A program made the translations under genes and the position numbers. A stretch of 24,452 nt of DNA from a virus (lineage: Duplodnaviria; Caudoviricetes): IMG/VR virus record IMGVR_UViG_3300017909_002134, positions 1 through 24,452 of that record; one strand, written 5' to 3'. Shown here piece by piece: positions 2 through 23,478 of the stretch. Position 1 is the first letter of the stretch. Each line of letters starts with the position of its first letter. The notes below the pieces were generated by a model. That model did no database searches. It was not told the DNA's origin and saw only the letters and a program-made list of their open reading frames with translations.

Positions 2-457
2 GAACTTGCAGACAAATTGTACGCAGGCGAAACAAATTACATTTTTTACAAAGTAATATTAGATAAGGATGGATATAGAGCAGTGCCTAAGAATGCTGTT
101 GAAAGCAAAACGCACACAGAAATACAACAGAAAGATATAGTAAACACAAATTTGTATGAAATAAAATCCAACACAGATGATTCATGCATTAGATTTAATT
201 TAAACATGATTAAAAAAGAATGGAATATATCAATAGACAGTGACTTAAAATCGTCGTTGAAGAACAGTGTAGATGCTAATAATGAATATGAGTTCTTTGC
301 AACCAATGTTAGTAACACATCAATACCAGCATACAGTTTTAAAATTAAATTACAAAATTTATTTGATGGTGATATTACAATACCACACACAGTTGATTAT
401 GTTCCAAAAATATTTTGTAGAAAAGTGTTCAATTATGCATATGAGGTAACACAATGA
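2..457 (+). CDS. Hypothetical protein, 5'-truncated by the window edge
   Basis: The frame is open from base 2 (ELADKLYAGE...), so the TTG at 17 is probably not the real start. The TGA stop overlaps the next ATG (ATGA, 454-457). No motif recognised. Confidence 0.7.
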   Translation, partial: ELADKLYAGETNYIFYKVILDKDGYRAVPKNAVESKTHTEIQQKDIVNTNLYEIKSNTDDSCIRFNLNMIKKEWNISIDSDLKSSLKNSVDANNEYEFFATNVSNTSIPAYSFKIKLQNLFDGDITIPHTVDYVPKIFCRKVFNYAYEVTQ

Positions 458-1368
458 TACTAAAAATTTCAGATATAGATTTTGTGTTTTTAAGTTTTGA
501 CGAGCCAAATGCTGACAAAAACTTTGCTGATTTAAAAAAGAAAGTGCCGTGGGCAAAACGTGTGCATGGTGTGGTAGGATTCGATTCTGCACACAAGAGA
601 GCAGGAGAAATATCTGATTCAGATAGATTTATCACAGTAGACGCTGATACGCAAATAGACGAAGAATTTTTATCAATGCTTGTAGACTTTAATAGTTTAG
701 GGATAGATGACACATACACATTAAGTTGGTGCGGTAAGATTGACCTAAATGGTTTACAATATGGAAATGGCAGTTTAAAATGTTGGACAAAAGAATTTGT
801 AAAAGAAATGAAAACTCATGAGAATCACGATGGCAAAAATAAAAATGTTATTGAGTTTTGTCATAATCCGAAATATTTTCAGTTTAATGAAAATTTTTCA
901 ACAAGTTTTATAAATGGTTCGGCCTTTCAGGCATGGAGAGCAGGTTTTAGAGAAGGCGTCAAAATGAGTTTAGATAAAAATGCTCGATTAAGCAATCTGA
1001 AAGATGCTTGGTGGCAAAATTATCAAAGACTTCTTGTATGGATGTCAGTGGGTCAAGATTGTGAATACGGATTATATGCAATTCATGGAGCAAGATTAGG
1101 ATGCTATCTAACAAGTTGCACTGATTGGGATTTCAAGAAAGCAAACAATTACAGTTTCTTTAAGCATTATTGGCAATATGATATTCATGACGGTGGTAAC
1201 ATAAAACCAGATTATTACAAAGATATTGTTGATATGGGGCAAAAGATAAGGGATCAACACGATATACCGTTAAGTCCTGAACCGTTCAGTATTGATCAAA
1301 GCAAAACATTTAAAGAAGTTTACTTGAACACACCACGTATTTGGAAAAGGAGATTTAAAAATGTTTGA
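454..1368 (+). CDS. GT-A-fold glycosyltransferase-like protein
   Basis: Hydrophobic strand followed by a DxD motif (FITVDAD). Shares FLSFDEPNAD, RVHGVVG..AH, YGNGSLK and AWRAGFREGVKM blocks with the next ORF. GAGG RBS upstream. Confidence 0.65.
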   Translation: MILKISDIDFVFLSFDEPNADKNFADLKKKVPWAKRVHGVVGFDSAHKRAGEISDSDRFITVDADTQIDEEFLSMLVDFNSLGIDDTYTLSWCGKIDLNGLQYGNGSLKCWTKEFVKEMKTHENHDGKNKNVIEFCHNPKYFQFNENFSTSFINGSAFQAWRAGFREGVKMSLDKNARLSNLKDAWWQNYQRLLVWMSVGQDCEYGLYAIHGARLGCYLTSCTDWDFKKANNYSFFKHYWQYDIHDGGNIKPDYYKDIVDMGQKIRDQHDIPLSPEPFSIDQSKTFKEVYLNTPRIWKRRFKNV

Positions 1369-2032
1369 TATATTTTTTATTTCATATCAAGAACCAAATG
1401 CAGATGTGAATTTTGCAATACTGCAAGACAGGTTTCCTATTGCTCAGCGAATACATGGCGTCAAAGGTATACATCAAGCACACAAAGAAGCCGCCAAAAA
1501 AGCATTAACAAAAATGTTTTATGTTGTAGATGGTGACGCTTTAGTAGAAGATGATTTTAATTTTGATTACGAAGTACCAACAAAAGATATGAATGCTGTT
1601 CATGTTTGGAGGAGTAAAAATCCTGTAAATGAATTAGTTTATGGGTACGGCGGAGTAAAATTATTGCCAACAAAACTTACATTAGATATGGATTGCACTT
1701 CAACAGATATGACAACTAGTATCAGTAATAGATTTAGACCAATGGAACAGATATCAAACACATCTCGTTTCAACAGTACACCATTTAATACTTGGAAAAG
1801 TGCATTCAGAGAATGTGTAAAACTATCAAGCAAAGTGATAGATAGGCAAGACAACAAAGAGACTGAAGCAAGATTAGATGTGTGGTGCAACAATTCAAAT
1901 GACAGTATTGCTATTGCAGGTGCAAAAGCAGGAAGACAGTATGGTGAAGCAAACAAAAATAACAAAGAAGCATTAGCAAAAATTAATGACTTTGATTGGT
2001 TAAAGGAACAGTATGAGCAAGATCCCATTTGA
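1361..2032 (+). CDS. GT-A-fold glycosyltransferase-like protein, paralogue of 454-1368
   Basis: FISYQEPNAD, RIHGVKGIHQAH, DxD motif (YVVDGD), YGYGGVKL, TWKSAFRECVKL. AGGAG RBS upstream. Confidence 0.65.
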   Translation: MFDIFFISYQEPNADVNFAILQDRFPIAQRIHGVKGIHQAHKEAAKKALTKMFYVVDGDALVEDDFNFDYEVPTKDMNAVHVWRSKNPVNELVYGYGGVKLLPTKLTLDMDCTSTDMTTSISNRFRPMEQISNTSRFNSTPFNTWKSAFRECVKLSSKVIDRQDNKETEARLDVWCNNSNDSIAIAGAKAGRQYGEANKNNKEALAKINDFDWLKEQYEQDPI

Positions 2033-3140
2033 TAATATAGTAAAATTTGGACAACAAACAATGCTAGAAAAGAAACTGTTCAATGTCAGTTGGATTTTAA
2101 GTAGGTTTTGTAATTATGATTGTTCATACTGTTGGCCTTATGCACACAGTAAATTGTCTGATCATAGACCTCTTGAGCAATATGAACAAACAATTGAAGA
2201 AATTAAAAGACAAGCAAGAGCAAACGGCTTTAATGATTTTCATTTTAGTTTTTCAGGTGGTGAACCAACAGCATATAAAAAATTTTTAGAATTAATACAG
2301 TTTTACAGCAAAGATTCTACTCCAAATTATCAAAGCATACACATGACAACTAATTTAAGTCCTGGAATGAAATGGTGGCAACGTTGGTTAGATGTCACAA
2401 AAAATTTATCAAGACGATCAATCACAGCCAGTTTTCATCATGAATTTGCAAACGAACAAGAATTTGGAGATAAAATTTTAATGCTTACAGATCATGATGT
2501 ATTTGTTACAATAAATCAAGTGATGGTGCCTGAGATTTTTGATGAACTTTATGATAGATGCAAAAGATTTTATGAAAGAGGTATAAATGTTACACTGAAA
2601 CCTCAAAGCGATTCTACTGCAAGTTTTATTGTAAAAGGTTATACAGATGATCAAAAGAAATTAATGCAACAAGGTTTCCCACAGCAGTTTCCTGGAAAAC
2701 ACTACAACAACTTTGATAGTTTTGAATCTAACTGGGCAGACAGAATTGATAATAAAATATATCAACTTAAACTTATAGATAGTAAACACAAAGAACATTT
2801 TTTGGATCAAGCAGAAAGATTGAATGCGTTTGGATTCAATAAATTTAAAGGCTGGAACTGCAATGCTGGTTATCAAAGTTGTATAATAAGAGAGCCAGGT
2901 GGAGAAATAAAAAGAGCATACAGTTGTAAAGACGAGCCGTTAGGCACAATTGATAAAGGATTTGATCTGTTCAAAAAGTCTGCACCTTGTATAACAGACA
3001 GTTGTGTAAGTTCTGCAGACAGCAAAATACCAAAGCAAAGGAAGATGGATTTTTTAGAGCATTGGGAATCTGAAGATGCTATTATGGAAATAAGCAGAAA
3101 ACAATCTAAACAATTTAAAAAGGAAAGACAGAGTGTATAA
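2013..3140 (+). CDS. Radical SAM protein with C-terminal Cys-rich (Twitch/SPASM-like) domain
   Basis: CNYDCSYC (CxxxCxxC), FSGGEPT, TTN; C-terminal WNCNAG...YSC...CITDSC. Confidence 0.92.
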   Translation: MSKIPFDNIVKFGQQTMLEKKLFNVSWILSRFCNYDCSYCWPYAHSKLSDHRPLEQYEQTIEEIKRQARANGFNDFHFSFSGGEPTAYKKFLELIQFYSKDSTPNYQSIHMTTNLSPGMKWWQRWLDVTKNLSRRSITASFHHEFANEQEFGDKILMLTDHDVFVTINQVMVPEIFDELYDRCKRFYERGINVTLKPQSDSTASFIVKGYTDDQKKLMQQGFPQQFPGKHYNNFDSFESNWADRIDNKIYQLKLIDSKHKEHFLDQAERLNAFGFNKFKGWNCNAGYQSCIIREPGGEIKRAYSCKDEPLGTIDKGFDLFKKSAPCITDSCVSSADSKIPKQRKMDFLEHWESEDAIMEISRKQSKQFKKERQSV

Positions 3141-4119
3141 ACTTGAAGACATAAGAGATGTTCATTTTGAAATAACAAGCAAGTGTCAGGCTAAATGTCC
3201 TATGTGTCCAAGACGTATTGCAGGTGGGCCTTTAAATCCTTTTATTAAATTAGATGAAGTCACATTAGACACATTCAAAAAATGGTTTCCTGAATCATTT
3301 ATCAAACAATTGAACAGTATGTTTATGTGTGGTAACCTTGGCGATCCTATTATTAGCAAAGATACATTGGAGATATATCAATACTTGCGTGAAGTGAATC
3401 CAAACATCAGTCTTGCAATGCACACAAATGGCAGTGCCAGAGAACCTGCATGGTGGGAGAAAATTGCAAAAGCCAAAGTAAAAGTAACATTTGGTATAGA
3501 TGGTTTACAAGATACTAATCATCTGTATAGGATATCTACAAATTTTGACAAGATTATTAAAAACGCAAAAGCATTTATAGATGCTGGAGGATTTGCCAAG
3601 TGGCATATGTTGGTGTTTGAACACAACGAACATCAAGTAGAAGAAGCAAGACAGATGTCACAACATCTAGGATTTAAAATGTTTACAACAAAACACACAT
3701 CTAGATTCAAAGGTGATTATTTACAAGTAATAGATGAAGATGGAAAGCCATTGCACAAATTAAGACCAACAGAGAAAAGTGCAAGTATGATACCTTTAGT
3801 TGAACAATCACAAAAAGAAATTAAACCTACTATTGTGTGTAAAGCAGTCAAATACAAACAGATATATGTGAGTGCTTGTGGCAATATATCACCTTGTTGC
3901 TGGTTAGATATGGAGTGGATCCCACCAATGCAAGAATCAAGAATAGATTATATGAAGAGAATTGGTGAGTTTCCGAATTTAAATACAAGTAGTTTAGAAG
4001 AAATATTTGAAAAAGGATTTTTTAATAAAATTGAACAAACATGGAAAGATATTCCTTTACAAGAATGTTCAAAACAATGTGGATCATTTGATAAACTAGG
4101 AGAACAATTTGAAAATTAA
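3133..4119 (+). CDS. Radical SAM protein with C-terminal SPASM/Twitch domain
   Basis: GTG start. CQAKCPMC, MCGNLGDP (variant of the GGEP motif), HTNG, FGIDG; C-terminal CKA...IYVSACGNISPCC...CSKQC. Confidence 0.92.
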   Translation: MYKLEDIRDVHFEITSKCQAKCPMCPRRIAGGPLNPFIKLDEVTLDTFKKWFPESFIKQLNSMFMCGNLGDPIISKDTLEIYQYLREVNPNISLAMHTNGSAREPAWWEKIAKAKVKVTFGIDGLQDTNHLYRISTNFDKIIKNAKAFIDAGGFAKWHMLVFEHNEHQVEEARQMSQHLGFKMFTTKHTSRFKGDYLQVIDEDGKPLHKLRPTEKSASMIPLVEQSQKEIKPTIVCKAVKYKQIYVSACGNISPCCWLDMEWIPPMQESRIDYMKRIGEFPNLNTSSLEEIFEKGFFNKIEQTWKDIPLQECSKQCGSFDKLGEQFEN

Positions 4120-4714
4120 AATACAAGATGTGCTGTATTGGATGGATGCCATCAGAAACTCTGATGATAGATATCGTACACTTGAAAGTTTCTGGAAAGG
4201 TCAAGTCAACAGTAAGTTGTGGTTAATAGATAATCTTAAACATTATTTTAATCCACACCCTTACAATGTATTACTTTGCGGTGGTTGGAATGGTGTACTT
4301 GCAACACTATTGTTCAACAGTGATGTTAATATAGCAAAAATTACAAGCATGGATGTTGATCCTAGTTGTGAAAAGATTGCGTGTGATATAAACAAAGCAT
4401 ATGAAATAGAAGGTAAGTTTAAAGCAATTACAAAAAATATGTTAGATTATGACAATTATGATTCACACAACTTAATAATTAACACTGCTTGTGAACACAT
4501 ATCGCAAACGGATTTTAACAAATGGCTAGATGTACTACCCAGAAACACAAGATTAATATTACAAAGCAATGATTATTTTGCACACAAAGAGCATATTAAT
4601 TGTAAAACTACTCTAGAGGAATTTAAAAACAGTTGTAGTATAGATGTGAATTTTGCGGCTGAACTGCCAACAGAAAAATATAAAAGATTTATGATAATGG
4701 GAATCAAAACATGA
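4109..4714 (+). CDS. Class I SAM-dependent methyltransferase-like protein
   Basis: TTG start with AGGAG at 4098-4102. Motif I-like VLLCGGWNG, acidic strand-2 end SMDVD, and LIINTACEH. Confidence 0.75.
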   Translation: MKIKIQDVLYWMDAIRNSDDRYRTLESFWKGQVNSKLWLIDNLKHYFNPHPYNVLLCGGWNGVLATLLFNSDVNIAKITSMDVDPSCEKIACDINKAYEIEGKFKAITKNMLDYDNYDSHNLIINTACEHISQTDFNKWLDVLPRNTRLILQSNDYFAHKEHINCKTTLEEFKNSCSIDVNFAAELPTEKYKRFMIMGIKT

Positions 4715-5415
4715 TAATGAGTAAAAAAGACATAGATGAATATCACAATCTAGGTTTAGACACAGCAACAAAAGTGTTTAATAAATTTAAAGATGGCACT
4801 CTAGATTGGTTACAACTTGACTTAGATTTCAATGACTATGTAAATGCTTTAGAAATGACAAATATAAATCCATATTTTGTTGAACACAGAGAGGACGAAA
4901 CACACAAAGGTTGGGAAAGTTGTTGTTTACACGGACTGGGTATTGATCAAACTAGAGTTGCGAAGGAGTATGGATATGATGACGAACTAAATGCTCCGTA
5001 TGATTGGACACCTTTGCAAAAATTGGCTCCAACTGCAAAAAAATTCTGGGAAGATTTCCCAGCAGAACGATACAGCAGAATTAGATTTATGAAACTAAAA
5101 CCATCAGGCATGATTGATTGGCACAATGATGACCCTGGCACACCTTTACCAGATGATTTGTGCAATTATCTGATTCCTATTAATGTTGCAATTTTACACC
5201 CTGCACTCTGTTATATGGAATTAGAAGGTGAAAAATTAGTGCCATGGAAACATGGCAAAGTGTTTTTAGTAAACATTTTAAAAAATCACAGAGTAGTGAA
5301 CAATTCTAATGTAGATAGAATACACATGATTGCTCAAGCACATATTGGAAATAAAAGGAAAGAATTTAACGAATTACTAGATAGGAGTATACAAAAATAT
5401 GGCGTTTCTATTTGA
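4711..5415 (+). CDS. Fe(II)/2-oxoglutarate oxygenase (aspartyl/asparaginyl beta-hydroxylase-like)
   Basis: RIRFMKLKPSGMIDWHND (HxD), then distal His and Arg in NHRVVNNSNVDRIH. Confidence 0.85.
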   Translation: MIMSKKDIDEYHNLGLDTATKVFNKFKDGTLDWLQLDLDFNDYVNALEMTNINPYFVEHREDETHKGWESCCLHGLGIDQTRVAKEYGYDDELNAPYDWTPLQKLAPTAKKFWEDFPAERYSRIRFMKLKPSGMIDWHNDDPGTPLPDDLCNYLIPINVAILHPALCYMELEGEKLVPWKHGKVFLVNILKNHRVVNNSNVDRIHMIAQAHIGNKRKEFNELLDRSIQKYGVSI

Positions 5416-6790
5416 AGCACAAACAAAAGAAAAGAAAAATATTGTTTTCATTTGCAACACTAACTTTCACCAGATAGACAATGCAAGTGCAAAAGAAACA
5501 ATTATGAATATTGCTGAATATCAAATCAGTAATATTACAAGCAAAGGCTATGATTGTTATGTTGCTATCAGTGAAGACACAACTTTACAAAAGGTTGTAG
5601 ATGATTATGATTATGCAGTATGTTACAGCACAGATACAGAGTTTGAGGGAGATAAATTTTTTGAACACTTACATGAACTTATTAAATCAGATTTTTTGGT
5701 TGCAGGACATATATTGGATAGAAAAGAAGGCTGGTATGAAATTCATGAACAATGCTATGTGTTAAATTTAAAAAAATACAAAGAATACGAATGTCCTGAA
5801 ATAGGAGAATTCAAACGGAATGCCGAACATTTTGAAACAGTGCCTATTAGAAGTGATGAAAACTTTCATGATGATCATACTCCGTTATGGATTAAGCCAG
5901 GCACAGAGATGGAAAAATACAAACACAAATGGCATGGTTGGAATCTTTTAAGAACTGCATTTGATAACAAAGAAGAAGTTCTTGTGTTTGATGAAAATAT
6001 AAGACACTCTAAAAGATGTTATTATGCGGCACACGAAACTGACTATATTGAAAACAGCAGTCATATATTAAAGAAATACAATTTAAGTGCAAGTAGATTG
6101 TTTTATCCAATCAACACAGAGGAAGTTGTACCATTACCAGATTTTGTTGGTCCTATTAAACAACTTGTAACTCCTGCAAGTGGGTTTAACTGGTTAAAAT
6201 ATTTAGACAAGTATGGATATGATGAAGACACAGAAGTAATATTTTATGATTACAATCCTAATGCACTTTATTATATGCAAACTATAATAGAAAAATTTGA
6301 AGGCGGAGACTTGCATAAGTTTTTAAAACAAAACAATACACACAGAACTCCTGATTGGATAAACAGCAAAAAAGATATTGCAGATTATATCAGTAAAATA
6401 GGAGGCTTGTTAGCACTAAGAAGCAAATTAAAATTCAAATATGTTGAATGTGATCTTTTAAATGAATTCAATCTAAAAATTAAAAATAACAAAGGCACAA
6501 TTCTAAATATTAGTAATATATTTGCCTATGAACCAACAGCGGCAGTTGTGCCAACAAAACAAAGAGTATTCAGAGAAAACAAATTAATTAGATTGCTGAA
6601 TGAAAAATATGATAAAATTCATTTAATTGCATCTATGCACTCATGGACAGGTTACGTGGATTATCCTATGTTAGCAGGTCCAGTAACAAAATTTACAGAG
6701 TGCGATATAGAATCAATGAGAGCACCATTATGGCGCTTCGGAAAAGATTGGAAAAATCCAAAGGATCCTTATGAAGAAGACGAAGAATAG
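5399..6790 (+). CDS. Hypothetical 463-aa protein; possible N-terminal GT-like plus C-terminal SAM-binding Rossmann domain
   Basis: Long ORF with AGGAG RBS, overlapping both neighbours. C-terminal half has TPASGFN...IFYDYNPNAL...VECDLL...NISNIFAY, spaced like a class I SAM-binding fold. The domain call is tentative. Confidence 0.45.
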   Translation: MAFLFEAQTKEKKNIVFICNTNFHQIDNASAKETIMNIAEYQISNITSKGYDCYVAISEDTTLQKVVDDYDYAVCYSTDTEFEGDKFFEHLHELIKSDFLVAGHILDRKEGWYEIHEQCYVLNLKKYKEYECPEIGEFKRNAEHFETVPIRSDENFHDDHTPLWIKPGTEMEKYKHKWHGWNLLRTAFDNKEEVLVFDENIRHSKRCYYAAHETDYIENSSHILKKYNLSASRLFYPINTEEVVPLPDFVGPIKQLVTPASGFNWLKYLDKYGYDEDTEVIFYDYNPNALYYMQTIIEKFEGGDLHKFLKQNNTHRTPDWINSKKDIADYISKIGGLLALRSKLKFKYVECDLLNEFNLKIKNNKGTILNISNIFAYEPTAAVVPTKQRVFRENKLIRLLNEKYDKIHLIASMHSWTGYVDYPMLAGPVTKFTECDIESMRAPLWRFGKDWKNPKDPYEEDEE

Positions 6791-8045
6791 TTGTACTTTC
6801 TGTATGCATCCTTTCACAGGACTTGCCACTAGAGAAGATGGAGCAATAAAAGTTTGTTGTAGAAGTTTGCCAATTGCTAACATCAAAGACATGAGTCTAG
6901 AAGAAGCATGGAATTCAGAAGCAATGAAAGAAGTAAGACGTCAAGTATTAAATGATGAAAGACCAGATGTGTGCCAGCCTTGTTTTGATTTAGAAGATCA
7001 AGGAGTACAAAGTTTACGACAAAGACATATTACAGATTCTTCACCAGAATCAAGAAGTAATCTGTATCCAAATGCTTTAGATAGTTTACAAACGGATTAT
7101 TCAATGCCATTTGAATTGCCCACAATGGAGATTAAAATTAATAACTTATGCAATCTTAAATGTAGAATGTGTAATCCTCTAGACAGTACACAATGGAAAG
7201 ACTGGAGCAGTATTGTTTCACACTATGAAAAGGAAGGCAATTATCTTGTAGATGCAGTCAAAAATTTAGGATTAGAAAAAGCACCATATGTTGGTTTGTT
7301 TGAGGACAAATTACACTTTTGGGAAAACTTAGAAAAACTTTTACCTTATTTCAAACGTGTAGAATTTGCTGGTGGCGAACCTCTTATGGATCCATCACAT
7401 TACAAAATCTTAGATTTACTTTCTAAAAACGGAAAAAACATTGAAATAAAATACGCAACCAATGGCACAACACTTGGGATAAAGGGTGGCAGAACTGTGC
7501 ATGAGTATTGGCCCAAGTTTAAAAGTGTGGCTGTAAATGTTAGTATAGACGGATTGCATGACACATACGAATATATCAGAGGCAATGGTAAGTTTTCAGA
7601 TGTAGAATATAACATAAAGGAAATGAAAAAGATTCCAACAGTAAGCCGTATTGTGGGTGCATTCACAGTACAAGCCAACAACATATTACAAATAGACAAA
7701 GTGATTGATTACTTTTTAAATGAAATGCAAATTGTGTTTTATAGTCATAGAGTAAATTATCCAAGAGCCTTATCGGCACAGGTTTTACCTGAAGAATTAA
7801 AACAAGCAGTGGTTGTAAAACTAGAAGCAATGAAAAGCAAGGTAAAAGATTATGAGATGGTAAAAAAATATCCTGTGTTGGAAAAAATTACTTTACAACA
7901 GATACAAGACAATATTAACTTTTTACAAGCAAGAGATTTGCACGAACATTGGAACGATTGTGTGGATTTCAATAGAAAGTTAGATGCAACAAGAAAGCAA
8001 GGGCCATTCGAAAAAATTAATCCGGAGTTTGCAAATTATGTTTAG
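6771..8045 (+). CDS. Radical SAM protein with N-terminal Twitch/SPASM-like domain
   Basis: N-terminal FCMHPF...DGAIKVCC...CQPC precedes the core CNLKCRMC, FAGGEPL, YATNG, VSIDG, YIRG. Confidence 0.92.
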   Translation: MKKTKNSCTFCMHPFTGLATREDGAIKVCCRSLPIANIKDMSLEEAWNSEAMKEVRRQVLNDERPDVCQPCFDLEDQGVQSLRQRHITDSSPESRSNLYPNALDSLQTDYSMPFELPTMEIKINNLCNLKCRMCNPLDSTQWKDWSSIVSHYEKEGNYLVDAVKNLGLEKAPYVGLFEDKLHFWENLEKLLPYFKRVEFAGGEPLMDPSHYKILDLLSKNGKNIEIKYATNGTTLGIKGGRTVHEYWPKFKSVAVNVSIDGLHDTYEYIRGNGKFSDVEYNIKEMKKIPTVSRIVGAFTVQANNILQIDKVIDYFLNEMQIVFYSHRVNYPRALSAQVLPEELKQAVVVKLEAMKSKVKDYEMVKKYPVLEKITLQQIQDNINFLQARDLHEHWNDCVDFNRKLDATRKQGPFEKINPEFANYV

Positions 8046-11319: not shown

Positions 11320-11929
11320 TTAATATCCTATACATTTTTTCTGCAACAGCATTGTTACTCTCCTGTCCTGGGTGCATACCATCTGTTGCTTTATCATAAA
11401 TGGTTATGCCATCGTTGTGCCAATTACTGACATTAATAAAATCAATTTTGTGTCTTTCTAATTCGCTTGGCGTTGCAGGAAAATGAATATATTTTATACC
11501 TAATTTATTAAGGTACAAGTCTGCGTGTTGTATATAGAACCAAGACTTCATTGCGTAATCTTTTTCATCTAAAAATTCTACCCATTTGCGTTCTTGATGT
11601 GTTTTATTCCAAGGTCCTAATCTATCTCTAAACAACGGAAACTTATGTTGGTTATTGAACAACATATCTCTCACAAAATGACTCCACATAATTACTACAA
11701 CATCATCCTTTTTGTAATCAAATTTTAAAATGCTGTACAATATTTCTACATTACTACTGCCTGGAAATGATTTGTTTACAAGTTCCATATCAAGTTTGTT
11801 TGCCAATGATTGTGCCCAACCTAGTTTGCTAGGTTTAAGATGATGAAACTGATTAAAGAACCAATTTTTACAATCCTCTAGTCCAGTTCCATATGTGTAA
11901 GAACAGCCAAACGTGATTAATCTTTGCAT
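11312..11929 (-). CDS. SGNH/GDSL hydrolase-like protein
   Basis: Block I FGCSYTYG, block II PGSSN, block V DGMHP (DxxH). Start moved from 11944 to the ATG at 11929, which has a GGAG upstream. Confidence 0.8.
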   Translation of the reverse strand: MQRLITFGCSYTYGTGLEDCKNWFFNQFHHLKPSKLGWAQSLANKLDMELVNKSFPGSSNVEILYSILKFDYKKDDVVVIMWSHFVRDMLFNNQHKFPLFRDRLGPWNKTHQERKWVEFLDEKDYAMKSWFYIQHADLYLNKLGIKYIHFPATPSELERHKIDFINVSNWHNDGITIYDKATDGMHPGQESNNAVAEKMYRILND

Positions 11930-12738
11930 TGATCTTCTCCCCATTGTCTTTCTTTACACCAGAAACATTTACCGCACACAGGCACGGGCGACCCTGGCAC
12001 ATATGTCTTGTAATCCAAGTCTCCAAAGATTTCAGGATATGTGTCTCGATCACCTTCACAACTGCGAGTAAGATTGAATAGGTCCATTATGCCTAATTTC
12101 TTGAATTGAGCAACTATCCAATCCTTCTGTACATATGTGAATGGGTGACAAGCATAGCCGCCCATGTGTGGTTTGATGAGTTTTTCTAGAGTCTTATCAC
12201 CAATAGTATCTATTAAGACATCTCTGTCCAATAGTCTCTCATCAAATTCTTTATCAGGATTCTTGGTCACAGCACAAAACCAAGCATCCAATTTTTCTGT
12301 ATGAGCAACGTATTCTGCGTGTGCTCTTAATTCTATTTGATTACCGCTTTTCATTTTTCCATATTCGTCCATGATGTTTGGACCTTTTGAACCCCATTCT
12401 AAATCAGGAGCAATAAAATTTTCGTGTCTTGTGAATTTAATTGTTGGAAAATTATCAACCAACCAATGATATACATCTAAACTGTTTTGTTTTTGCCAAG
12501 GTCTGGTCTTCCAACATCTAATATTTGTAATAATGTGTACTTCTGATGTGTAAAGTTTTTGTGTGATTATACTGCACAGCAACACTGCCATCAAGGCACT
12601 GTCCGCTCCACCACTCAAACTGATGCCTACTCTCTGCCATCTTTCAGAAAAAGGAAACACAACTCCATCAATCTCATGGAGAATGTTCTTGTAGAGACTG
12701 GTTTGGTAAACCGCTTTGATGTGTTCGTAATCTGGCAT
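11917..12738 (-). CDS. QueC-like PP-loop ATP pyrophosphatase
   Basis: PP-loop ISLSGGADS and C-terminal Zn-site-like TRSC...CGKCFWC. Start moved from 12855 to the ATG at 12738, which removes the overlap with the divergent gene and lies downstream of ATAAATA. Confidence 0.75.
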   Translation of the reverse strand: MPDYEHIKAVYQTSLYKNILHEIDGVVFPFSERWQRVGISLSGGADSALMAVLLCSIITQKLYTSEVHIITNIRCWKTRPWQKQNSLDVYHWLVDNFPTIKFTRHENFIAPDLEWGSKGPNIMDEYGKMKSGNQIELRAHAEYVAHTEKLDAWFCAVTKNPDKEFDERLLDRDVLIDTIGDKTLEKLIKPHMGGYACHPFTYVQKDWIVAQFKKLGIMDLFNLTRSCEGDRDTYPEIFGDLDYKTYVPGSPVPVCGKCFWCKERQWGEDQCKD

Positions 12739-12751
12739 AATTGGACATGAA

Positions 12752-12758
12752 TATTTAT
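12752..12758 (-). promoter_or_regulatory. T4 gp55-type late promoter-like motif (ATAAATA)
   Basis: Reads TATTTAT on the + strand, 13 nt upstream of the ATG at 12738, in a divergent intergenic gap. Confidence 0.55.
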
Positions 12759-12788
12759 CGTTATTAAGTACGCATATAATTTTTTCCG

Positions 12789-12795
12789 ATAAGTA
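12789..12795 (+). promoter_or_regulatory. Late promoter-like motif (ATAAGTA), probably leaderless
   Basis: 4 nt before the ATG at 12800, with no Shine-Dalgarno. TAAGTAC also occurs at 12765-12771. Confidence 0.5.
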
Positions 12796-12799
12796 CAGT

Positions 12800-13477
12800 A
12801 TGTTGGAAAGAATCAATACCAAAATAGATGCCAAATCCATTTTCGATATTACCAAACAATTACCGCCAGGTAAGAATGTTTTGAATAAACCTACTGGTGA
12901 TTTCTTTTATGATGAATGGAAACTGGAAGACAAGTGGTTAGGCACTCCTGTAGAAGACCTTTTGAGTCAATTACCTAATCATGGTGAAGCAAGAGTCATA
13001 GTTTTATCGCCAGGACAGAGTTATTGTGCCCATGCAGACATAGATGATAGGTGGCACATCACACTAGATGCGGAACAAAGTTATCTTATTGATTTGGATA
13101 ACAACAAAAATTATAAATTAGAAGTAGATGACGAGGTTTATGTGATGGATTCAGGAAGAATTCACACTGCAACCAACTTTGGCTTCAAACCACGATATCA
13201 GTTGGTTATACGCAAATTACTGAAAAGGAATGATTTACAAGATCCTGTGACTGCCAAGATAGAATTAATAGATCCACCATACAATGTAAGATATCTTTTT
13301 GATAAAAGTTTTTCTATTTTATTAAACAAATTAGAAAAAGAAGGAAAAATTAATAATTTTAGACGCACTAACAATAATTCAATAGCATTAGATATAGAAA
13401 AAGAAGAGGTGCAACAATTAATAGACCTAGAAAAGACTTGTGGCTTCAAGTACAAAATAGTTTATGGAAAATTTTAA
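12800..13477 (+). CDS. Fe(II)/2OG oxygenase-like protein (Asp/Asn beta-hydroxylase-like) with C-terminal extension
   Basis: ARVIVLSPGQSYCAHAD (HxD), RWHI, and IHTATNFGFKPRYQL (distal His and Arg). Confidence 0.8.
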   Translation: MLERINTKIDAKSIFDITKQLPPGKNVLNKPTGDFFYDEWKLEDKWLGTPVEDLLSQLPNHGEARVIVLSPGQSYCAHADIDDRWHITLDAEQSYLIDLDNNKNYKLEVDDEVYVMDSGRIHTATNFGFKPRYQLVIRKLLKRNDLQDPVTAKIELIDPPYNVRYLFDKSFSILLNKLEKEGKINNFRRTNNNSIALDIEKEEVQQLIDLEKTCGFKYKIVYGKF

Positions 13478-14084
13478 TAATTTTTACAAATTTAAGGGAG
13501 GACTCGCTGTGACGAATATGCTTTACGAGCCTCTTGTTAGCAACAACAAAAAAATTTTTTGTATGAATTGGAATGCAAACAAATATTTTGAGAACGCGGA
13601 AATGACAGACGAACTTTACAACTATTGGTTTAATCAAGAAGTGAAATATTTGTTCAAATTAAAAAATAAAAAATATATTCCTGAGGTTATTAATATAGAT
13701 TACACAAAAAGAACAATTATATTTCGTTGGTATGACAAAAGTCTACATTGGTTGTTGGAAACAAAACAAATTCACAATATTCCAAATTGGCAAGACAAAA
13801 TAAAAGCCATCAAAGATGATTTAGAAGAGAATAACATATACAAAATTAATATGTACCCGCACACCTTTTACTTTGATGATGAAGACAATGCACATATTAT
13901 GGATCTATATGGTTGCACAGATGTTGATACAAAATTTTTAGATATACAGTTTCTTAAACCTCTTATACGTAACGATAGATTTGATAAATTTATAGTAAAC
14001 GACCAATTAGACACACATGAATTGTACAATGAAACTATTAAAACTAACTATGCTGAATGGCCGGGAGATTTTTTAAATGCTTGA
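13464..14084 (+). CDS. Protein-kinase-like fold protein, degenerate catalytic loop
   Basis: Helix-C-like FNQEVKYLFKL, IPEVINID, loop YKINMYPHTF, DFG-like MDLYG. Confidence 0.5.
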   Translation: MENFNNFYKFKGGLAVTNMLYEPLVSNNKKIFCMNWNANKYFENAEMTDELYNYWFNQEVKYLFKLKNKKYIPEVINIDYTKRTIIFRWYDKSLHWLLETKQIHNIPNWQDKIKAIKDDLEENNIYKINMYPHTFYFDDEDNAHIMDLYGCTDVDTKFLDIQFLKPLIRNDRFDKFIVNDQLDTHELYNETIKTNYAEWPGDFLNA

Positions 14085-14613
14085 GTTTGTGGGTAACTGT
14101 AATCATATCCTTAATTGGAATGAAATAATAAATGAAGTAAAAGATCAAGAAGGTAAGTGTGCCTGCAAGTATCTGCCTGTGTCAGAAGTGCCAGAACTAA
14201 AAGAAATTAATGACGCACTGGGCAAATACTGCCAACCATCTATAGAATGGATCAACTACTACCCAGGCAAAGAGTTTTCAATGGAGGTAGCAGAGAAGTT
14301 TGGAGAATTTGTTGGTGCACCAAGAATGATTAAGAGTTGGATATCAAAAATATATCCAGGTAAGACTGCTCCATGGCATTGGGATTGGGACGTTGATTGG
14401 AAAAAATACACTGAACAAGGCAATCCTGTAAGATTCACAGCAATGATTAATGAACCTGCACCAGGACACGTGTTTATTGTAGGTGATGAAGCATTGTACA
14501 ATCAAAAACAAGGAGATGTTCACAAGTGGCCTGACTTTAAATCATATCATGGAGGAACAAATTGTGGACTTGTACCTAAATTTAATTTTAATTACTTGGC
14601 ATACGCAGAATGA
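14077..14613 (+). CDS. Fe(II)/2OG oxygenase-like (cupin/DSBH) protein
   Basis: SWISKIYPGKTAPWHWD (HxD) and YHGGTNCGLVPK. GGAG RBS. Confidence 0.8.
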   Translation: MLEFVGNCNHILNWNEIINEVKDQEGKCACKYLPVSEVPELKEINDALGKYCQPSIEWINYYPGKEFSMEVAEKFGEFVGAPRMIKSWISKIYPGKTAPWHWDWDVDWKKYTEQGNPVRFTAMINEPAPGHVFIVGDEALYNQKQGDVHKWPDFKSYHGGTNCGLVPKFNFNYLAYAE

Positions 14614-15164
14614 AACAATACATAGGAAATTGTAGTGACGTGATAGACTGGAATGCAGTTGTAGAAAGTGTTGCCAACTCTAAACCAGCATACCAAGGAC
14701 CAAGACACACACGAAATGATGACCTACCTGGCATTAAAGAGATCAGTGAAGCATGGGACAAGGCAGGATACACACTCGCATCAGAAGGTGGCACAGTTGG
14801 TTGGGATATGTGTATACCTGAAACTAATTTTGATAGAAGTGTTGTAGATAAATTTTCTGATTATGTGGGTGTTGATGTTTTAAGTTGTTGGGTCAGTGTG
14901 ATACATCAAGGATATCATGCTCCATGGCATTGGGACACACAGGACAACGAAGAAGAATTAAAGAAGTTAGGTGCTATTGAAAGATTTCATGTGCATATGC
15001 AGGACACACGTCCAGGACATATATTAATTGTTGAAGATGAATTGTACTACAACGCAAAACAAGGTGATGTTTACAAGTGGCCAGATAGAAATGCATGGCA
15101 CGCCGGCAGTAATTGTGGACAAAATCCAAAATACATTTTTAATTTCTTTGGAACAAAAAGATGA
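14610..15164 (+). CDS. Fe(II)/2OG oxygenase-like protein, tandem paralogue of 14077-14613
   Basis: CWVSVIHQGYHAPWHWD, PGHILIV, KQGDVYKWPD, WHAGSNCGQNPK. ATGA coupling to the upstream gene. Confidence 0.8.
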   Translation: MKQYIGNCSDVIDWNAVVESVANSKPAYQGPRHTRNDDLPGIKEISEAWDKAGYTLASEGGTVGWDMCIPETNFDRSVVDKFSDYVGVDVLSCWVSVIHQGYHAPWHWDTQDNEEELKKLGAIERFHVHMQDTRPGHILIVEDELYYNAKQGDVYKWPDRNAWHAGSNCGQNPKYIFNFFGTKR

Positions 15165-15715
15165 AAATAATAATAACAGGACACACATCACCTATGGGCA
15201 GTGCCCTATACGAACATTATTCATCTATGAATGAAGTGTTAGGTGTAAGTAAGAATGAAGGATTCGACTTCACAAAAAATCATCATCAAGATCAAATTGT
15301 TGATATGGCTTTGGCAAGGGACGTATTTCTAAATGTGGCCCACGTCGGCACAGCACAGTCAACTTTAATGATGAAATTAAAACAACGCTGGAGTCCAGAA
15401 GCACCATTACGTAAAGTTATAACTGTGGGCACATTGGCAACAAAAGTAGATAAAAAATTATTAGAGCAGGTTAACATTGACAAGCAATACCTCAAAGACA
15501 AACATCACATAGATGCAGTCAGCAACGCAATAACAAATGAAAAGCCATTTGGTGAACAGTTACATTTTACTCTTGTGCGTGTTTTAAACTATGGTGAAAA
15601 GACAGGTGACAGAGCAGGTGAACCCACTTGCAGTGTAGAGGATATATGTAGAACTTTTGATTATATCATTAATGAACCTATGTATATAGGTAAGTTAGAT
15701 ATTAGACGTAATTAA
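15161..15715 (+). CDS. Short SDR/NAD(P)-binding Rossmann-fold protein
   Basis: MKIIITGHTSPMG (variant of TGxxxGxG), DVFLNVAH, and YxxxK (YLKDK). Confidence 0.65.
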   Translation: MKIIITGHTSPMGSALYEHYSSMNEVLGVSKNEGFDFTKNHHQDQIVDMALARDVFLNVAHVGTAQSTLMMKLKQRWSPEAPLRKVITVGTLATKVDKKLLEQVNIDKQYLKDKHHIDAVSNAITNEKPFGEQLHFTLVRVLNYGEKTGDRAGEPTCSVEDICRTFDYIINEPMYIGKLDIRRN

Positions 15716-16518
15716 TATTCAGATAGATTATCAATACTTAACTGTTTACGAAACTTGTCTGTAAACACACAATCAATTCTTAAGCCATATTCCTGTTCAG
15801 CATTTACTTCTCCGCCATGCCAGTCTTGATCATTCCAAAATGCGGCATTAGAATTTATGTAAACTTTGTTTTGTTTTTCAGGATCCCATATGTAGAACCC
15901 TCTTTTTGTGTTGTGTCTTATGTGTATGAATTCATTCTTGTGTCCACTGTATCCTTGATTGTCTCCATGCTTTCCATCAAGGTCTCTATGTTCAAATGGT
16001 TTGCCGTCGTGTTCGCAATGGAAGAATATCACTCTTCCTATGCTTTCTATGATGCCCGTGTTTACTAATTCTTTTATCCAAGCCACTAGACCTGGAAAAT
16101 ATTTTGCTTCTTCTGTTATGTTTCTTTCAGCATTTCTTTGATCCCAATCTCCTTCTTCCCAAAGGAAATAATAAATGTAAGGATCCTTTGCACCCAACAC
16201 AGCCTTAAGATACCTTGTGAACTGATTGCGTGTTTTGTAATCTTTTATATTTGCATATAGGTCATCACCATTTTTTCGGATTGGATCACTTTCTGGTAGT
16301 GCTTTGTACTCTTCCAAAGCCATGTAAATTGGTTTCCAATTTAATTGGTAACTCATATCTTTTGGATCAAAACCTGGCGACATCCAAGTACCTTCTTTGG
16401 CATATTCTCTTGCCAAAGCAAAGCCTCTACATATTTCTGGATGTAGATTTTTAAAACCTTCTATGTCTATGTGTTCGTCTAAATCAATATATGGACGACC
16501 GCCAATTCCTCTGATCAT
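15712..16518 (-). CDS. Fe(II)/2OG oxygenase-like protein
   Basis: GRVIFF...FEHRD (HxD) and WHGGE...YGLRID. Confidence 0.65.
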   Translation of the reverse strand: MIRGIGGRPYIDLDEHIDIEGFKNLHPEICRGFALAREYAKEGTWMSPGFDPKDMSYQLNWKPIYMALEEYKALPESDPIRKNGDDLYANIKDYKTRNQFTRYLKAVLGAKDPYIYYFLWEEGDWDQRNAERNITEEAKYFPGLVAWIKELVNTGIIESIGRVIFFHCEHDGKPFEHRDLDGKHGDNQGYSGHKNEFIHIRHNTKRGFYIWDPEKQNKVYINSNAAFWNDQDWHGGEVNAEQEYGLRIDCVFTDKFRKQLSIDNLSEY

Positions 16519-16523
16519 ACAAC

Positions 16524-16540
16524 TATTTACTGTTTAAATA
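16524..16540. promoter_or_regulatory. Back-to-back late promoter-like motifs (TAAATA on each strand)
   Basis: In a 32-bp divergent gap: minus-strand TAAATA at 16524-16529, 5 nt before the ATG at 16518; plus-strand TAAATA at 16535-16540, 10 nt before the ATG at 16551. Confidence 0.6.
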
Positions 16541-16550
16541 CATACATATT

Positions 16551-17123
16551 ATGGCTTTTGAATTGGTACCATACTCTGATAGATTTGACCTAACAGAATT
16601 CTACAACACTGCCAAGCAGAAAGGATTTGTCAACAACAGTTCTAAAAAGATGTTGATAGACTCTTTGTCTAAAGAAGATAGATGGCAAGTTTGGTTATTG
16701 TGTTGGAAAGGAAAAGTTATAGGGTCAACTGCGGCTCATTCGTTTCCTGAAATGGGACCTGACAGTTATCGTATTGCTTGTAGAATATGTACATTCACAG
16801 ATGCTTTACCTAAAGAATATCAAGTGGTGCGTACACGAGATACCATTAGAAATCATCAAACCACCACACAACAATTTTTTCAACCTGCAGGTATTATGTG
16901 GGCAGGATTTAATAAAAATTATTTTGTCACAACCAATGAAAATGCAGAAGGCACTCAACGTCTAGTGCATTCTATTGTGGCACCAACATTAGAGAGTACA
17001 GGTGTGTACACAAGAATAACAGACATGGATTACAGAGGTACACGTCAAACTGTGTGGCGTGTGAATGCAGATATATATTTTGATCAATTACAACACGTAA
17101 AGGCTTGGCCATTTGTAAAATGA
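16551..17123 (+). CDS. Hypothetical protein, possible GNAT-fold acyltransferase
   Basis: Strand pattern WQVWLLCWKGKVIGSTAAH...YRIACRIC resembles GNAT beta2-beta4. No clear acetyl-CoA-binding R/QxxGxG motif. Confidence 0.4.
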   Translation: MAFELVPYSDRFDLTEFYNTAKQKGFVNNSSKKMLIDSLSKEDRWQVWLLCWKGKVIGSTAAHSFPEMGPDSYRIACRICTFTDALPKEYQVVRTRDTIRNHQTTTQQFFQPAGIMWAGFNKNYFVTTNENAEGTQRLVHSIVAPTLESTGVYTRITDMDYRGTRQTVWRVNADIYFDQLQHVKAWPFVK

Positions 17124-17797
17124 AATACTATTATAACAATGTTCCCGGTAAAGGTTTATGTAGAAACAATTTAATCTACACTAGTCTTATAAATGAAGAT
17201 AAGACAGAATTTTGTATGTGGTTCAACAATGATACAGATTATCATAAAGGACAGAATGAAGTTGTAGATCCTGCATTAATGGATATGAAGTTTAAAAGAG
17301 AAAAGGATTTCTTAAAAATGCTAGATGTTGACCATAAAGAAATTATACCTTCTATTACAAAGATTGATAATAAAGAGAAAAAAATTTATTTTCAAATTGA
17401 AGGAGATGATTTTTGGGAACAAAGTCATGGCAAAAAATATGAAGACGTTGTGCCTAGATGGCAAGAAGAAATGTTGTATATTTTAGAGACGCACAAAAAA
17501 TTAGGCATCTACAAATACAGTTTACATCCGAGCAGTTATTGGGTAATTGATGGTGAATTAAGAAATGTCAATTACTTCTTTGCATACAGAGAGGATGAAG
17601 CACCTATCACAGTGCAGGAACATTTGAGTCATATATCCAAAGAGCGACAAAAAGAGTTGATGCCTAAAATGGAAAAAATGAGAATTAAAGCCACCAAGAG
17701 TTATTCATTTCACAAGTTACAAATACTATGCCTGGAAAGTTTTAGAAATGTTTATCCAGACAGTTTCATAGACAAGGCAATTTCCATTTATAAGTAA
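17120..17797 (+). CDS. Kinase-like fold protein, paralogue of 13464-14084
   Basis: Start moved from 17105 to the ATG at 17120 (ATGA overlap). NNLIYTSLINEDKTEFCM aligns with TNMLYEPLVSNNKKIFCM; FKREKDFL with FNQEVKYL; IYKYSLHPSSY with IYKINMYPHTF. Confidence 0.5.
   Translation: MKYYYNNVPGKGLCRNNLIYTSLINEDKTEFCMWFNNDTDYHKGQNEVVDPALMDMKFKREKDFLKMLDVDHKEIIPSITKIDNKEKKIYFQIEGDDFWEQSHGKKYEDVVPRWQEEMLYILETHKKLGIYKYSLHPSSYWVIDGELRNVNYFFAYREDEAPITVQEHLSHISKERQKELMPKMEKMRIKATKSYSFHKLQILCLESFRNVYPDSFIDKAISIYK
17789..17796 (+). promoter_or_regulatory. Late promoter-like motif (TATAAGTA), probably leaderless
   Basis: One mismatch to T4 TATAAATA, 5 nt before the ATG at 17802, no Shine-Dalgarno. Confidence 0.5.
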
Positions 17798-17801
17798 TAA
17801 T

Positions 17802-18959
17802 ATGCAAGATACAAAAACAACCAGTTTGTGCCATATATGTTATAGGCACTGTGAAGCAGAAAGAATCACAAAGGCAGACGGAGTGCATTTAATTAAACAC
17901 TGTCCTGAGCACGGCTCTAGTGATTATCTTGTGGAGCCTGATATAAATTTCTACAATAATCTTGTGTATGACAAAGCAGGATATTCTATACCACAAGGCA
18001 TAATGATTGAAGTTACAGATAAATGTAATCTAAATTGTCCGCATTGTTACCATAAACCAGATAACAAAACAGTTGATAAACCCATAGAACAAATATTGTG
18101 GCAAATAGAAAACAGGTTTAATGCTGACGCTGGTGCAGTAATTTTAGCAGGAGCAGAACCAACAGTAAGAAAAGATTTGCCGGAACTAATCAAACAAATC
18201 AAACAATTACTTAAAAAATTAGGAAGACCAGAAGATGTGTGTATTCTTACAAATGGTGTAAAACTTTCTGATAGAAAATGGGTAAAAGAAATTGCTGAAG
18301 CAGGAACAAACATGGTTATGATAGGAATGAATCATCACTCTTATCAAGGTATGAAAGTGCATGAAAAACAATTAAAAGGTATTGATAATTGTATTGCTGA
18401 AGGTATATTTGTTTATTATGTTGGTTACACACTAGAACACGTGGATCATATGGAAGAAGTATTAGAAGAAATACAGGCTTTAGGTAATCGTGCTTGGCAA
18501 TACAGAATTAGAGCAGGTTCAGATATTGGCAGATCACCAGACGAACCGCAATTCTTTTTAAGCAGACACGTTGCTAAGATAAAAGAAATTTGTGATCGCA
18601 AAGGTTGGACTTGGGAAAAGAAACCTGCTGATGATAATCTATATCATTACATGGTAAACATAAATGGTATCACACATAGAATTATACAATGGAGTGATCC
18701 TAAAACAATAGACCTAGAACAATTACAGTGTGGTCCATGGTGCGATTTTGTTCCTGGTAAACCTGTAACTAATTTTCTACATCAAATAATGTTGCGTGAT
18801 GCTGTTGTCAACGAAGGCAAAATATTATATGACACAGTGCCACCTAAGTATCTCTTCCAACCAGAAAATGTTGATTACGATGTTACAGAATGGACTTGGA
18901 AAAGTTGGGACGAATCAAGAGACAAACAATCTAAATTAATCAGCGACGTTGTAAGTTAG
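17802..18959 (+). CDS. Radical SAM protein with N-terminal metal-binding ribbon (MJ0619/Tes-like architecture)
   Basis: TTSLCHIC...LIKHCPEHG at the N-terminus, then IEVTDKCNLNCPHCY, LAGAEPT, LTNG. Confidence 0.85.
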   Translation: MQDTKTTSLCHICYRHCEAERITKADGVHLIKHCPEHGSSDYLVEPDINFYNNLVYDKAGYSIPQGIMIEVTDKCNLNCPHCYHKPDNKTVDKPIEQILWQIENRFNADAGAVILAGAEPTVRKDLPELIKQIKQLLKKLGRPEDVCILTNGVKLSDRKWVKEIAEAGTNMVMIGMNHHSYQGMKVHEKQLKGIDNCIAEGIFVYYVGYTLEHVDHMEEVLEEIQALGNRAWQYRIRAGSDIGRSPDEPQFFLSRHVAKIKEICDRKGWTWEKKPADDNLYHYMVNINGITHRIIQWSDPKTIDLEQLQCGPWCDFVPGKPVTNFLHQIMLRDAVVNEGKILYDTVPPKYLFQPENVDYDVTEWTWKSWDESRDKQSKLISDVVS

Positions 18960-19400
18960 ACTTATCACACTAGGATTTGATAACCAAAATTCTATTGAAT
19001 TTATAATTGTGTCACTATCTTTGTATGAACTGCTTGTGAGTCTCAACAACAACATATCAGTTGTCTCATTTTTGTCAGATGCTAATTTGAAGAATTCACG
19101 TTCAAGCAGGTTCTTATTATCGGTGTATGTTTTATGTTCCATGTCAGGGTAGGTACTTACAATAGCACCACACACAATCATTTTGTCTACTTGTTTATAT
19201 AATTTTTCTAATAGAGTTAATTGTAAATTATCAGCGGTATATGTGTTGTTGATAAACAGATCACAGTTTTTAGATTGTTCTATGATTTCATCCACAGTGT
19301 TAGATGAATCGAAGCCTACAACATCTTCAAACTTATTTTTAAAATAATTGTAAAGTGATTTACCTAGACCTTTTGTGTGTCCTGTGATTCGGACTTTCAT
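18936..19400 (-). CDS. Short SDR-like Rossmann-fold protein
   Basis: MKVRITGHTKGLG (TGxxxGxG), DLFINN, and YxxxK (YTDNK). Only 154 aa. Confidence 0.7.
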   Translation of the reverse strand: MKVRITGHTKGLGKSLYNYFKNKFEDVVGFDSSNTVDEIIEQSKNCDLFINNTYTADNLQLTLLEKLYKQVDKMIVCGAIVSTYPDMEHKTYTDNKNLLEREFFKLASDKNETTDMLLLRLTSSSYKDSDTIINSIEFWLSNPSVISLTYNVAD

Positions 19401-20586: not shown

Positions 20587-20593
20587 TATTTAT
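20587..20593 (-). promoter_or_regulatory. Late promoter-like motif (ATAAATA) of the fibre gene
   Basis: Intergenic, upstream of the AGGAG RBS of a structural gene. A TAAGTA variant lies next to it at 20596-20601. Confidence 0.65.
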
Positions 20594-23393: not shown

Positions 23394-23399
23394 ATTATT

Positions 23400-23428
23400 A
23401 TTATACATTCTTTTGGTAGTTGAGTCAA
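23400..23428 (-). promoter_or_regulatory. Sigma70-type promoter TTGACT-N17-TATAAT
   Basis: -35 at 23428-23423, -10 at 23405-23400, exact 17-bp spacer, upstream A-tract. The predicted +1 coincides with the ATG at 23393. Confidence 0.8.
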
Positions 23429-23468: not shown

Positions 23469-23478
23469 CTAAACACTA

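Follow-up and report, generated by a model that had tools for sequence, protein, structure and literature searches.

An enzyme island in a T4-like jumbo myophage and tfD, the conserved partner of its glycosyltransferase core

What does a phage do with more than twenty modifying enzymes encoded side by side? The question is raised by IMG/VR virus record IMGVR_UViG_3300017909_002134 (Duplodnaviria; Caudoviricetes), a contig of 24,452 bases that was analysed over its whole length and is called the window here. Its positions 454-19400 are filled by 23 consecutive open reading frames (ORFs), most of them resembling tailoring enzymes. An initial annotation of these letters had proposed a multi-step pathway that decorates virion proteins, lacks a scaffold enzyme and is attached to the adjacent fibre gene. 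We find that the island is a real block of soluble modifying enzymes, that its source is a T4-like jumbo myophage, and that the conserved partner of its core among informative loci is a gene termed tfD. The names tfD, u110, o0 and GTa to GTd (GT, glycosyltransferase) were coined in this analysis. As the leading explanation, for which we see an even chance, the phage makes a glycan on one of its late proteins, probably tfD, and a swappable set of enzymes edits it.

The window opens in the middle of its locus. In relatives found with GTb, the left side consists of three to four fibre paralogues with collar and chaperone domains, followed by tfD, u110, GTc, GTd, o0, GTa and usually GTb; a gene of 4,700 aa also lies on this side. 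After GTa/GTb comes a variable island, which ranges from no genes at all to more than 20, and then a convergent operon, fibre-o25-o28-VWA-ATPase, which forms the right border. GTc and GTd show invariant D91, D93 and H257, carry the DxD motif, and match the GT8/glycogenin profile (glycogenin E 1e-7, over residues 13-106 only). The contig begins inside this core, and the chain-building GTs missed by the initial annotation lie just off its end. The reported lack of a scaffold enzyme is thus a contig-end effect, as relatives carry these two glycogenin/GT8-like proteins directly upstream.

The fibre gene at 19405-20556 was rejected as the partner of the island. It is the end gene of the convergent right-hand operon, adjoins o25/o26 in 38 of 52 distinct loci, and persists in phages without an island; in seven no-island loci (L163, L165, L166, L170, L171, L173, L174) the fibre array directly abuts a fibre of this type. 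The last short-chain dehydrogenase/reductase (SDR) gene does share the strand of the fibre gene and follows it at a distance of 4 nt, as annotated, but of the 25 loci in which the gene after the fibre can be seen, only 5 have the SDR there. Richness in Thr and Ser is no argument for a link either, because the fibres of island-free phages are equally rich (0.21 vs 0.19). The idea that island-free phages carry longer last fibres was likewise dropped: the averages are 505 vs 501 aa, and a difference is true only in two nested losses.

To find the structural gene that does follow the island, a conserved 203-aa gene upstream of the fibre array, chosen regardless of the island, served as an unbiased anchor. 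The anchor search gave 218 loci, 115 of them distinct, which comprise 47 with the GT core, 23 closed empty sites and 45 that ended too early. All 47 GT-core loci contain tfD, and all 23 closed empty sites are without both tfD and the core. On a midpoint-rooted tree of 75 tips (the 70 informative anchor loci and five further empty loci), the tfD/core label changes 3 times, compared with a shuffled mean of 22.9; the changes are two nested losses and one deep split, and since kin share labels we attach no statistic to them. Neither GTa/GTb nor tfD was found elsewhere in any of five contigs of the empty type, which are 23-62% complete.

Ralstonia phage RsoM2USA, the only GTa-bearing isolate among 50,697 phage records, presents the same arrangement. 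Its gene 355 fuses a fibre-type N-terminal domain (E 3e-19) to a tfD domain (E 3e-24) and is directly followed by u110, GTc, GTd, o0, GTa, a twitch enzyme, GTb and a methyltransferase. The tfD protein has about 292 aa and a Ser/Thr fraction of 0.22, and also heads long proteins with Ig-like or Gly-rich tails. Its profile has no PDB match and no named Atlas family, tblastn against isolates gave one weak match, and a trimer prediction (score 0.00) is evidence neither way. The published virion analysis of RsoM2USA reports, in its available text, ten gel bands, none of them from genes 347-355.

A cellular origin of the window was rejected by means of G001, a 100-kb relative estimated to be 27% complete, in which all 23 genes occur in the same order at 40-93% identity. 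There, the island is joined to genes for the major head protein, portal, baseplate wedge, collar fibre and late sigma factor, which supports the annotated phage origin. The family is widespread: GTa/GTb fall into at least 7,998 protein clusters, and in each of four RNA libraries from seawater (2 studies), contigs with 90-99% identity account for 24-27 of 30 bins, which indicates the presence of relatives, not transcription. In another phage lineage (L045, L061, L062), long GTb-domain fusions and an Anp1-like GT lie near neck and sheath genes, with a gene of 57-59 aa upstream. Vibrio phage K566 encodes five twitch-type radical SAM enzymes and a GTa-like gene; none of 17 K566 genes checked matched the tfD-u110-GTc/d core. 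Its five twitch genes stand with GT-like genes behind a 225-aa gene (L083:17282-26743), and K567 and VS1 also match; the enzyme family is thus represented in cultured phages.

Within the window, the intergenic gaps of the ORF list range from -24 to +61 nt, and ORF calls together with profile, motif and fold checks uphold the annotated enzyme island. A single operon is excluded, as the 23 ORFs split into six blocks over both strands:

454-8952, +, block 1, nine genes
8942-12738, -, block 2, four genes
12800-15715, +, block 3, five genes
15712-16518, -, block 4, one gene
16551-18959, +, block 5, three genes
18936-19400, -, block 6, one gene

The individual features are the following (2OG, 2-oxoglutarate):

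2..457, +, o0, 3' part only; fifth gene of the tfD-u110-GTc-GTd-o0-GTa cassette, 193-203 aa in relatives
454..1368, +, GTa, GT-A-fold glycosyltransferase-like, invariant DxD (D63, D65)
1361..2032, +, GTb, a GTa paralogue (27% identity), fused to GTa in many relatives
2013..3140, +, radical SAM rS1 (Pfam)
3133..4119, +, radical SAM rS2 with C-terminal SPASM/twitch (Pfam)
4109..4714, +, class I methyltransferase-like (motifs only)
4711..5415, +, Fe/2OG oxygenase, Asp/Asn beta-hydroxylase-like (Pfam Asp_Arg_Hydrox, triad)
5399..6790, +, GT-A-like domain without DxD fused to a class I methyltransferase domain (model, alignment)
6771..8045, +, N-terminal-twitch radical SAM (NF033640, above cut-off)
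8038..8952, +, radical SAM rS3 (Pfam); longest ORF from 7984, likely ATG at 8038
8942..9904, -, radical SAM rS4 (Pfam)
9901..11319, -, N-terminal-twitch radical SAM (NF033640, above cut-off)
11312..11929, -, SGNH-like acyl enzyme (motifs GCS, GSSN, DGMHP)
11917..12738, -, QueC-like PP-loop ATPase with four invariant Cys; longest ORF from 12855
12752..12757, -, late-type promoter motif TAAATA at the head of the QueC-rS4 block
12800..13477, +, Fe/2OG oxygenase with C-terminal extension (triad)
13464..14084, +, kinase-fold protein 1, catalytic-loop Asp replaced by Asn
14077..14613, +, Fe/2OG oxygenase-like (triad, PDB profile match)
14610..15164, +, Fe/2OG oxygenase-like (triad, PDB profile match)
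15161..15715, +, SDR-like 1 (motifs)
15712..16518, -, Fe/2OG oxygenase-like (triad, PDB profile match)
16524..16529, -, TAAATA motif preceding 15712-16518
16535..16540, +, TAAATA motif preceding 16551-17123
16551..17123, +, possible GNAT-fold protein, unproven (weak PDB profile match)
17120..17797, +, kinase-fold protein 2, Asp replaced in the catalytic loop as well as in DFG
17802..18959, +, Tes/TrsS-like radical SAM (far below Tes/TrsS cut-offs), zinc ribbon at the N-terminus
18936..19400, -, SDR-like 2, an addition to the right-hand operon with variable sequence (37-53% to relatives)
19405..20556, -, fibre with Mtd_N domain, which bounds the island on the right and occurs in island-free phages too
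20587..20592, -, TAAATA motif preceding the fibre

Further right, at 22125-24450, a gene for a DUF2201 metallopeptidase-vWA protein and an AAA ATPase form a pair on the right arm that is kept with or without the island.

All seven radical SAM proteins named by the initial annotation score above the Pfam PF04055 cut-off. Two of them, 6771-8045 (325.7 bits) and 9901-11319 (405 bits), also exceed the cut-off of 170 for NCBIfam NF033640 (N_Twi_rSAM) and contain the N-terminal twitch Cys sets; the other five reach 32-51 bits or do not match. The protein at 17802-18959 belongs to neither Tes nor TrsS, with 76.7 and 96.9 bits against NCBIfam cut-offs of 450 and 490, and among Tes/TrsS-type features only the zinc ribbon PF23545 passes. 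This zinc ribbon is that of the tetraether synthase family, and the protein is 73-92% identical over 32 viral loci. The annotated five Fe/2OG oxygenases all share an invariant HxD..H triad in a 21-row alignment, whose profile matches the beta-hydroxylase structure 7v4f (E 4e-6); only 4711-5415 passes Pfam.

GTa and GTb have no Pfam match. Both hold up as GT-A proteins through their invariant DxD, the fold having been modelled for GTa only (pLDDT 86.9; GT-A fold match with Z 10.0, rmsd 3.1 A, 136 aligned). The best Foldseek match of GTa is domain 1 of A064R, the capsid glycosyltransferase of chlorovirus PBCV-1 (E 4e-4, TM 0.28, 12% identity). The suspected fusion protein at 5399-6790 (463 aa) is indeed predicted as two domains (pLDDT 94.3), with a GT-A/nucleotidyltransferase fold at residues ~10-225 and a class I methyltransferase fold at ~225-460, where the SAM-binding G262 is conserved in 90 of 91 rows and D284 in all 91.

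The labels of several other enzymes are weaker and come from motifs. The methyltransferase label of 4109-4714 derives from GGWxG and DxD motifs, with no Pfam and no PDB profile match; the SGNH label from motifs and a Pfam E of 0.0097; the two SDR labels from TG and YxxxK motifs. Profiles of GTa/GTb, the methyltransferase and the SDR proteins gave no PDB match at the thresholds used (one of these searches at 1e-5). The QueC-like protein keeps the PP-loop and four Cys and matches a PHROG (E 2e-5); it has no Pfam match to PF06508, nor does any protein of G001 in spite of a 78% homologue. The possible GNAT at 16551-17123 remains unproven, its best PDB profile matches (E 0.59 and 0.97) both being GNATs. 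As for the two kinase-like proteins, the kinase fold stands (E 2e-4), but the catalytic-loop Asp is Asn in protein 1 and Ser in protein 2 (15 rows); by this residue, both would lie outside active protein-kinase-like enzymes.

No membrane helix is predicted for any island protein. No precursor gene for a ribosomally synthesised and post-translationally modified peptide (RiPP) was found in inter-ORF gaps of at most 61 nt, overlapping short ORFs still being possible, and no RiPP maturase model of NCBIfam was above cut-off among the island ORFs. A sugar-synthesis gene is missing from the window island; some relatives add a UDP-sugar dehydrogenase.

Is the island one pathway? The initial annotation had suggested a check of neighbourhood conservation, which gives a divided picture across relatives: sub-blocks are tightly kept (2OG1-fusion 13/13, TwS1-rS3 9/9, kin2-Tes-like 19/20), but several junctions are not. 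This bears on the view, which we regard as unlikely, that a small glycosylation core is accompanied by a landing zone of late-expressed morons (oxygenases, pseudo-kinases, alternative oxidase (AOX), halogenase) that act on targets of their own, some of them by hydroxylating virion proteins directly. Six blocks on both strands with some rarely kept junctions would fit such a mosaic, as would two kinase-fold proteins without catalytic residues, the 2OG oxygenases scattered elsewhere in the close relative G002, and the AOX, aminotransferase, halogenase, desaturase and acyl-AMP enzymes inserted into relatives' islands. The tight sub-blocks, the 23 genes in unchanged order in G001, and the absence of the whole island wherever the core is absent speak against it. 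A coherent tailoring island and the annotated leading idea of virion decoration are supported; all 23 genes may or may not serve one pathway. In L023 (13279-13893) and many close relatives, the AOX gene (Pfam, E 2e-82) stands between the methyltransferase and the first oxygenase; the window has no AOX.

When would such an island be expressed? The motif TAAATA lies within 45 nt of four of the five block heads in the window, compared with 0.8% of 45-nt windows. We take it, from what is known of T4, to be a late promoter element. In homologues it precedes 60/60 fibre, 8/12 QueC-like, 18/30 GNAT-like and 11/22 2OG5 genes, as well as the first tfD gene in 25 of 47 cases. Among named genes of G001 and G002 with a clear upstream gap, it was present in 8 of 11 structural compared with 1 of 10 replication-type genes, the names scaffold, gp46 and gp47 having been assigned by reading the sequence; several replication-type genes show TTGAC..TATAAT instead. 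The perfect T4 late promoter TATAAATA was tried and discarded (47 matches at one mismatch vs 61.7 expected), which leaves the shorter TAAATA in front of the blocks as the one conspicuous motif. Sigma-70 sites are not enriched either (70 found vs 86.8 expected). With a late sigma gene present in G001, the island promoters are predicted to be late-type.

This timing concerns the main rival, which we consider rather unlikely: in this view the enzymes act on lipid carriers, where they remodel or newly build an O-antigen or capsule of the host surface and thereby block other phages or grazers. Late-type rather than sigma-70 motifs would be the wrong timing for exclusion by a lytic phage; moreover, no membrane protein, flippase or ligase accompanies the enzymes, and phages from the sea, freshwater and soil all retain the core although their hosts differ, always with tfD. 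GT8, on the other hand, includes lipopolysaccharide (LPS) enzymes, soluble GTs are generally normal in O-antigen synthesis, and the same gene groups occur in bacteria.

The latter emerged from a search of 185,579 species genomes (GTDB), which gave 40 loci, many of them phage contigs in bins. Bdellovibrionota contigs and one chromosome contain GTa, GTb, the methyltransferase and three radical SAM groups, beside GT2 genes in L460 and L462. These neighbourhoods support sugar chemistry for the left half of the island, but also the rival with its target at the cell surface. In one Bdellovibrionales contig (L459:155-12607; G011:C21, ~127-140 kb), the whole tfD-u110-GTc-GTd-o0-GTa cassette is present together with radical SAM genes; it lies behind pheT, with a GC content of 0.39 vs 0.43-0.45 and no fibre genes, on a contig whose cellular genes, read from the sequences, are the rib operon, tgt, secDF, rplS, trmD, rimM and pheT. 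Because this cassette is free of fibres, and four of five Bdellovibrionota genomes with GTa are without tfD, the enzymes can serve a cell. The contig shows that tfD belongs to the kit and that the kit can also exist without a virion. In Alphaproteobacteria (L464, L466, L470), a GTa relative is situated beside caspase-Sel1 repeat genes, not glycan genes.

The QueC-like enzyme invites a further explanation, which we deem improbable: a modified nucleotide or small molecule, or hypermodification of DNA or tRNA, with the QueC-like enzyme using deazaguanine from phage FolE and QueE. Consistent with it, QueE and GTP cyclohydrolase genes lie on the right arm of G002 (L216:14540-16121), and no canonical QueC was found in the five partial relatives. 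The GT, 2OG, radical SAM, GNAT and kinase classes also occur in base hypermodification. Then again, no TGT-family gene (PF01702) was found in five of five partial relatives (27-75% complete; DpdA could escape this model), the locus follows tail genes and stands under late motifs, most islands are without the QueC-like gene, and the co-occurrence of tfD would have no meaning. The QueC-like enzyme of the island is a possible partner of QueE and GTP cyclohydrolase of the G002 type.

To return to the glycan on a late phage protein, we infer every chemical step of the following scheme. The fixed four-GT core would build a short sugar chain, most likely on tfD, with GTc and GTd priming Ser, Thr or Tyr of the acceptor in the cytoplasm with host NDP-sugars (NDP, nucleoside diphosphate). 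GTa and GTb, perhaps with the GT-methyltransferase fusion, would extend and O-methylate the chain, as chlorovirus A064R does, and the separate methyltransferase may also cap it. The twitch and other radical SAM enzymes could then oxidise, epimerise or decarboxylate sugars, by analogy to the sugar reactions of BtrN, NeoN and BlsE. The SGNH protein would acylate, the QueC-like enzyme might amidate a carboxylate, and the SDR proteins may be further editors, before the decorated protein is assembled into the tail end. The pathway link is strongest in the left half, from GTa to SGNH/QueC, as members of these families are found among Bdellovibrionota GT2 genes too; the right half (four oxygenases, two pseudo-kinases, the GNAT-like and the Tes-like protein) is tied by position and promoter only.

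Several points weigh against this scheme. We infer product, acceptor and reaction alike, and tfD is a candidate virion protein. Genes that lie next to each other tend to be deleted as one, and a midpoint-rooted tree with three changes offers a small number of events. The fold matches of GTa are at superfamily level, with nucleotidyltransferases among them, and the GT domain of the fusion has S-T-G-T-E at the position of DxD in most of 91 rows. Junctions such as MT-2OG1 (1/16) and SDR1-2OG5 (0/9) are poorly kept, and the island also takes in genes of unrelated function, alternative oxidase being one. The TAAATA contrast is weak over whole regions (10/21 structural-region vs 16/48 replication-region genes), and intergenic DNA is AT-rich. 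The Bdellovibrionota add a cellular cassette with tfD but no fibres and, in most of their GTa genomes, GTa without tfD. Finally, published readings of similar islands favour, in the parts available, a change of the host O-antigen (PMC7029224; PMC7824862, section 3.4.10).

How does the locus compare with known systems? Among the closest is the host recognition cluster (HRC) of pelagimyophages and cyanomyophages (PMC7029224). This island of T4-like phages from aquatic habitats is likewise hypervariable, follows the fibre genes and contains GTs as well as radical SAM cassettes that are gained and lost. In the available text, a change of the host O-chain is proposed and no acceptor named. It differs in that the present group are jumbo phages related to RsoM2USA with a fixed tfD-u110-4GT core and seven radical SAM enzymes, and in its bounds, VrlC and gp14 there compared with fibre-o25-o28-VWA-ATPase at the right border here. 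Chlorovirus PBCV-1 A064R (PMC9614988) shares soluble viral GTs, a multidomain GT and methyltransferase protein, and clustered, clade-specific genes, and the fibril-glycan clusters of Megavirinae (PMC10117803) are likewise virus-encoded. These, however, are eukaryotic viruses with proven glycans, the fold likeness to A064R is weak, and the accessible parts of the chlorovirus paper mention no radical SAM arrays. As proposed here, mycobacteriophage GTs glycosylate virion proteins (Freeman et al. 2023, as cited in PMC12619734 and PMC10877033); as far as these excerpts go, the targets are capsid and tail tube of small actinophages, and no tailoring island is mentioned. Moraphages are aquatic jumbo phages with four putative GTs in their core genome (PMC12619734), and radical SAM is absent from the available text. 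A 183-kb marine T4-like genome with 12 radical SAM genes was read, in the portion at hand, as a case of Fe-S metabolism, GTs going unmentioned (PMC5332604). The two window members of NF033640 belong to a family without a known reaction. Fibre-adjacent GT/radical SAM islands, multi-radical-SAM genomes and virion glycosylation are already in print. The literature searches made here gave no published description of the tfD-GT cassette or its acceptor, nor, as far as the listed titles show, a paper on this twitch family in phages; supplementary annotation tables could name these genes.

Taken further, and tentatively, tfD-u110-GTc-GTd-o0-GTa/b may be a mobile 'glycoprotein kit', an acceptor with its own GTs and with twitch arrays as sugar editors, which would provide a strain-specific virion coat by undescribed radical chemistry, be spread through a very large assemblage of jumbo phages from aquatic habitats, and have been taken up whole by a predatory bacterium.

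That aquatic T4-like phages carry GT/radical SAM islands downstream of their tail genes has long been known and has usually been ascribed, without a test, to a change of host LPS. Now that a candidate acceptor is named, one found with the GT core at every informative locus, the question can be put to the bench with seven genes in a laboratory strain. If the glycan reading is true, abundant phages would provide a major example of glycosylated virions, and NF033640, a large unstudied radical SAM family, would gain a substrate.

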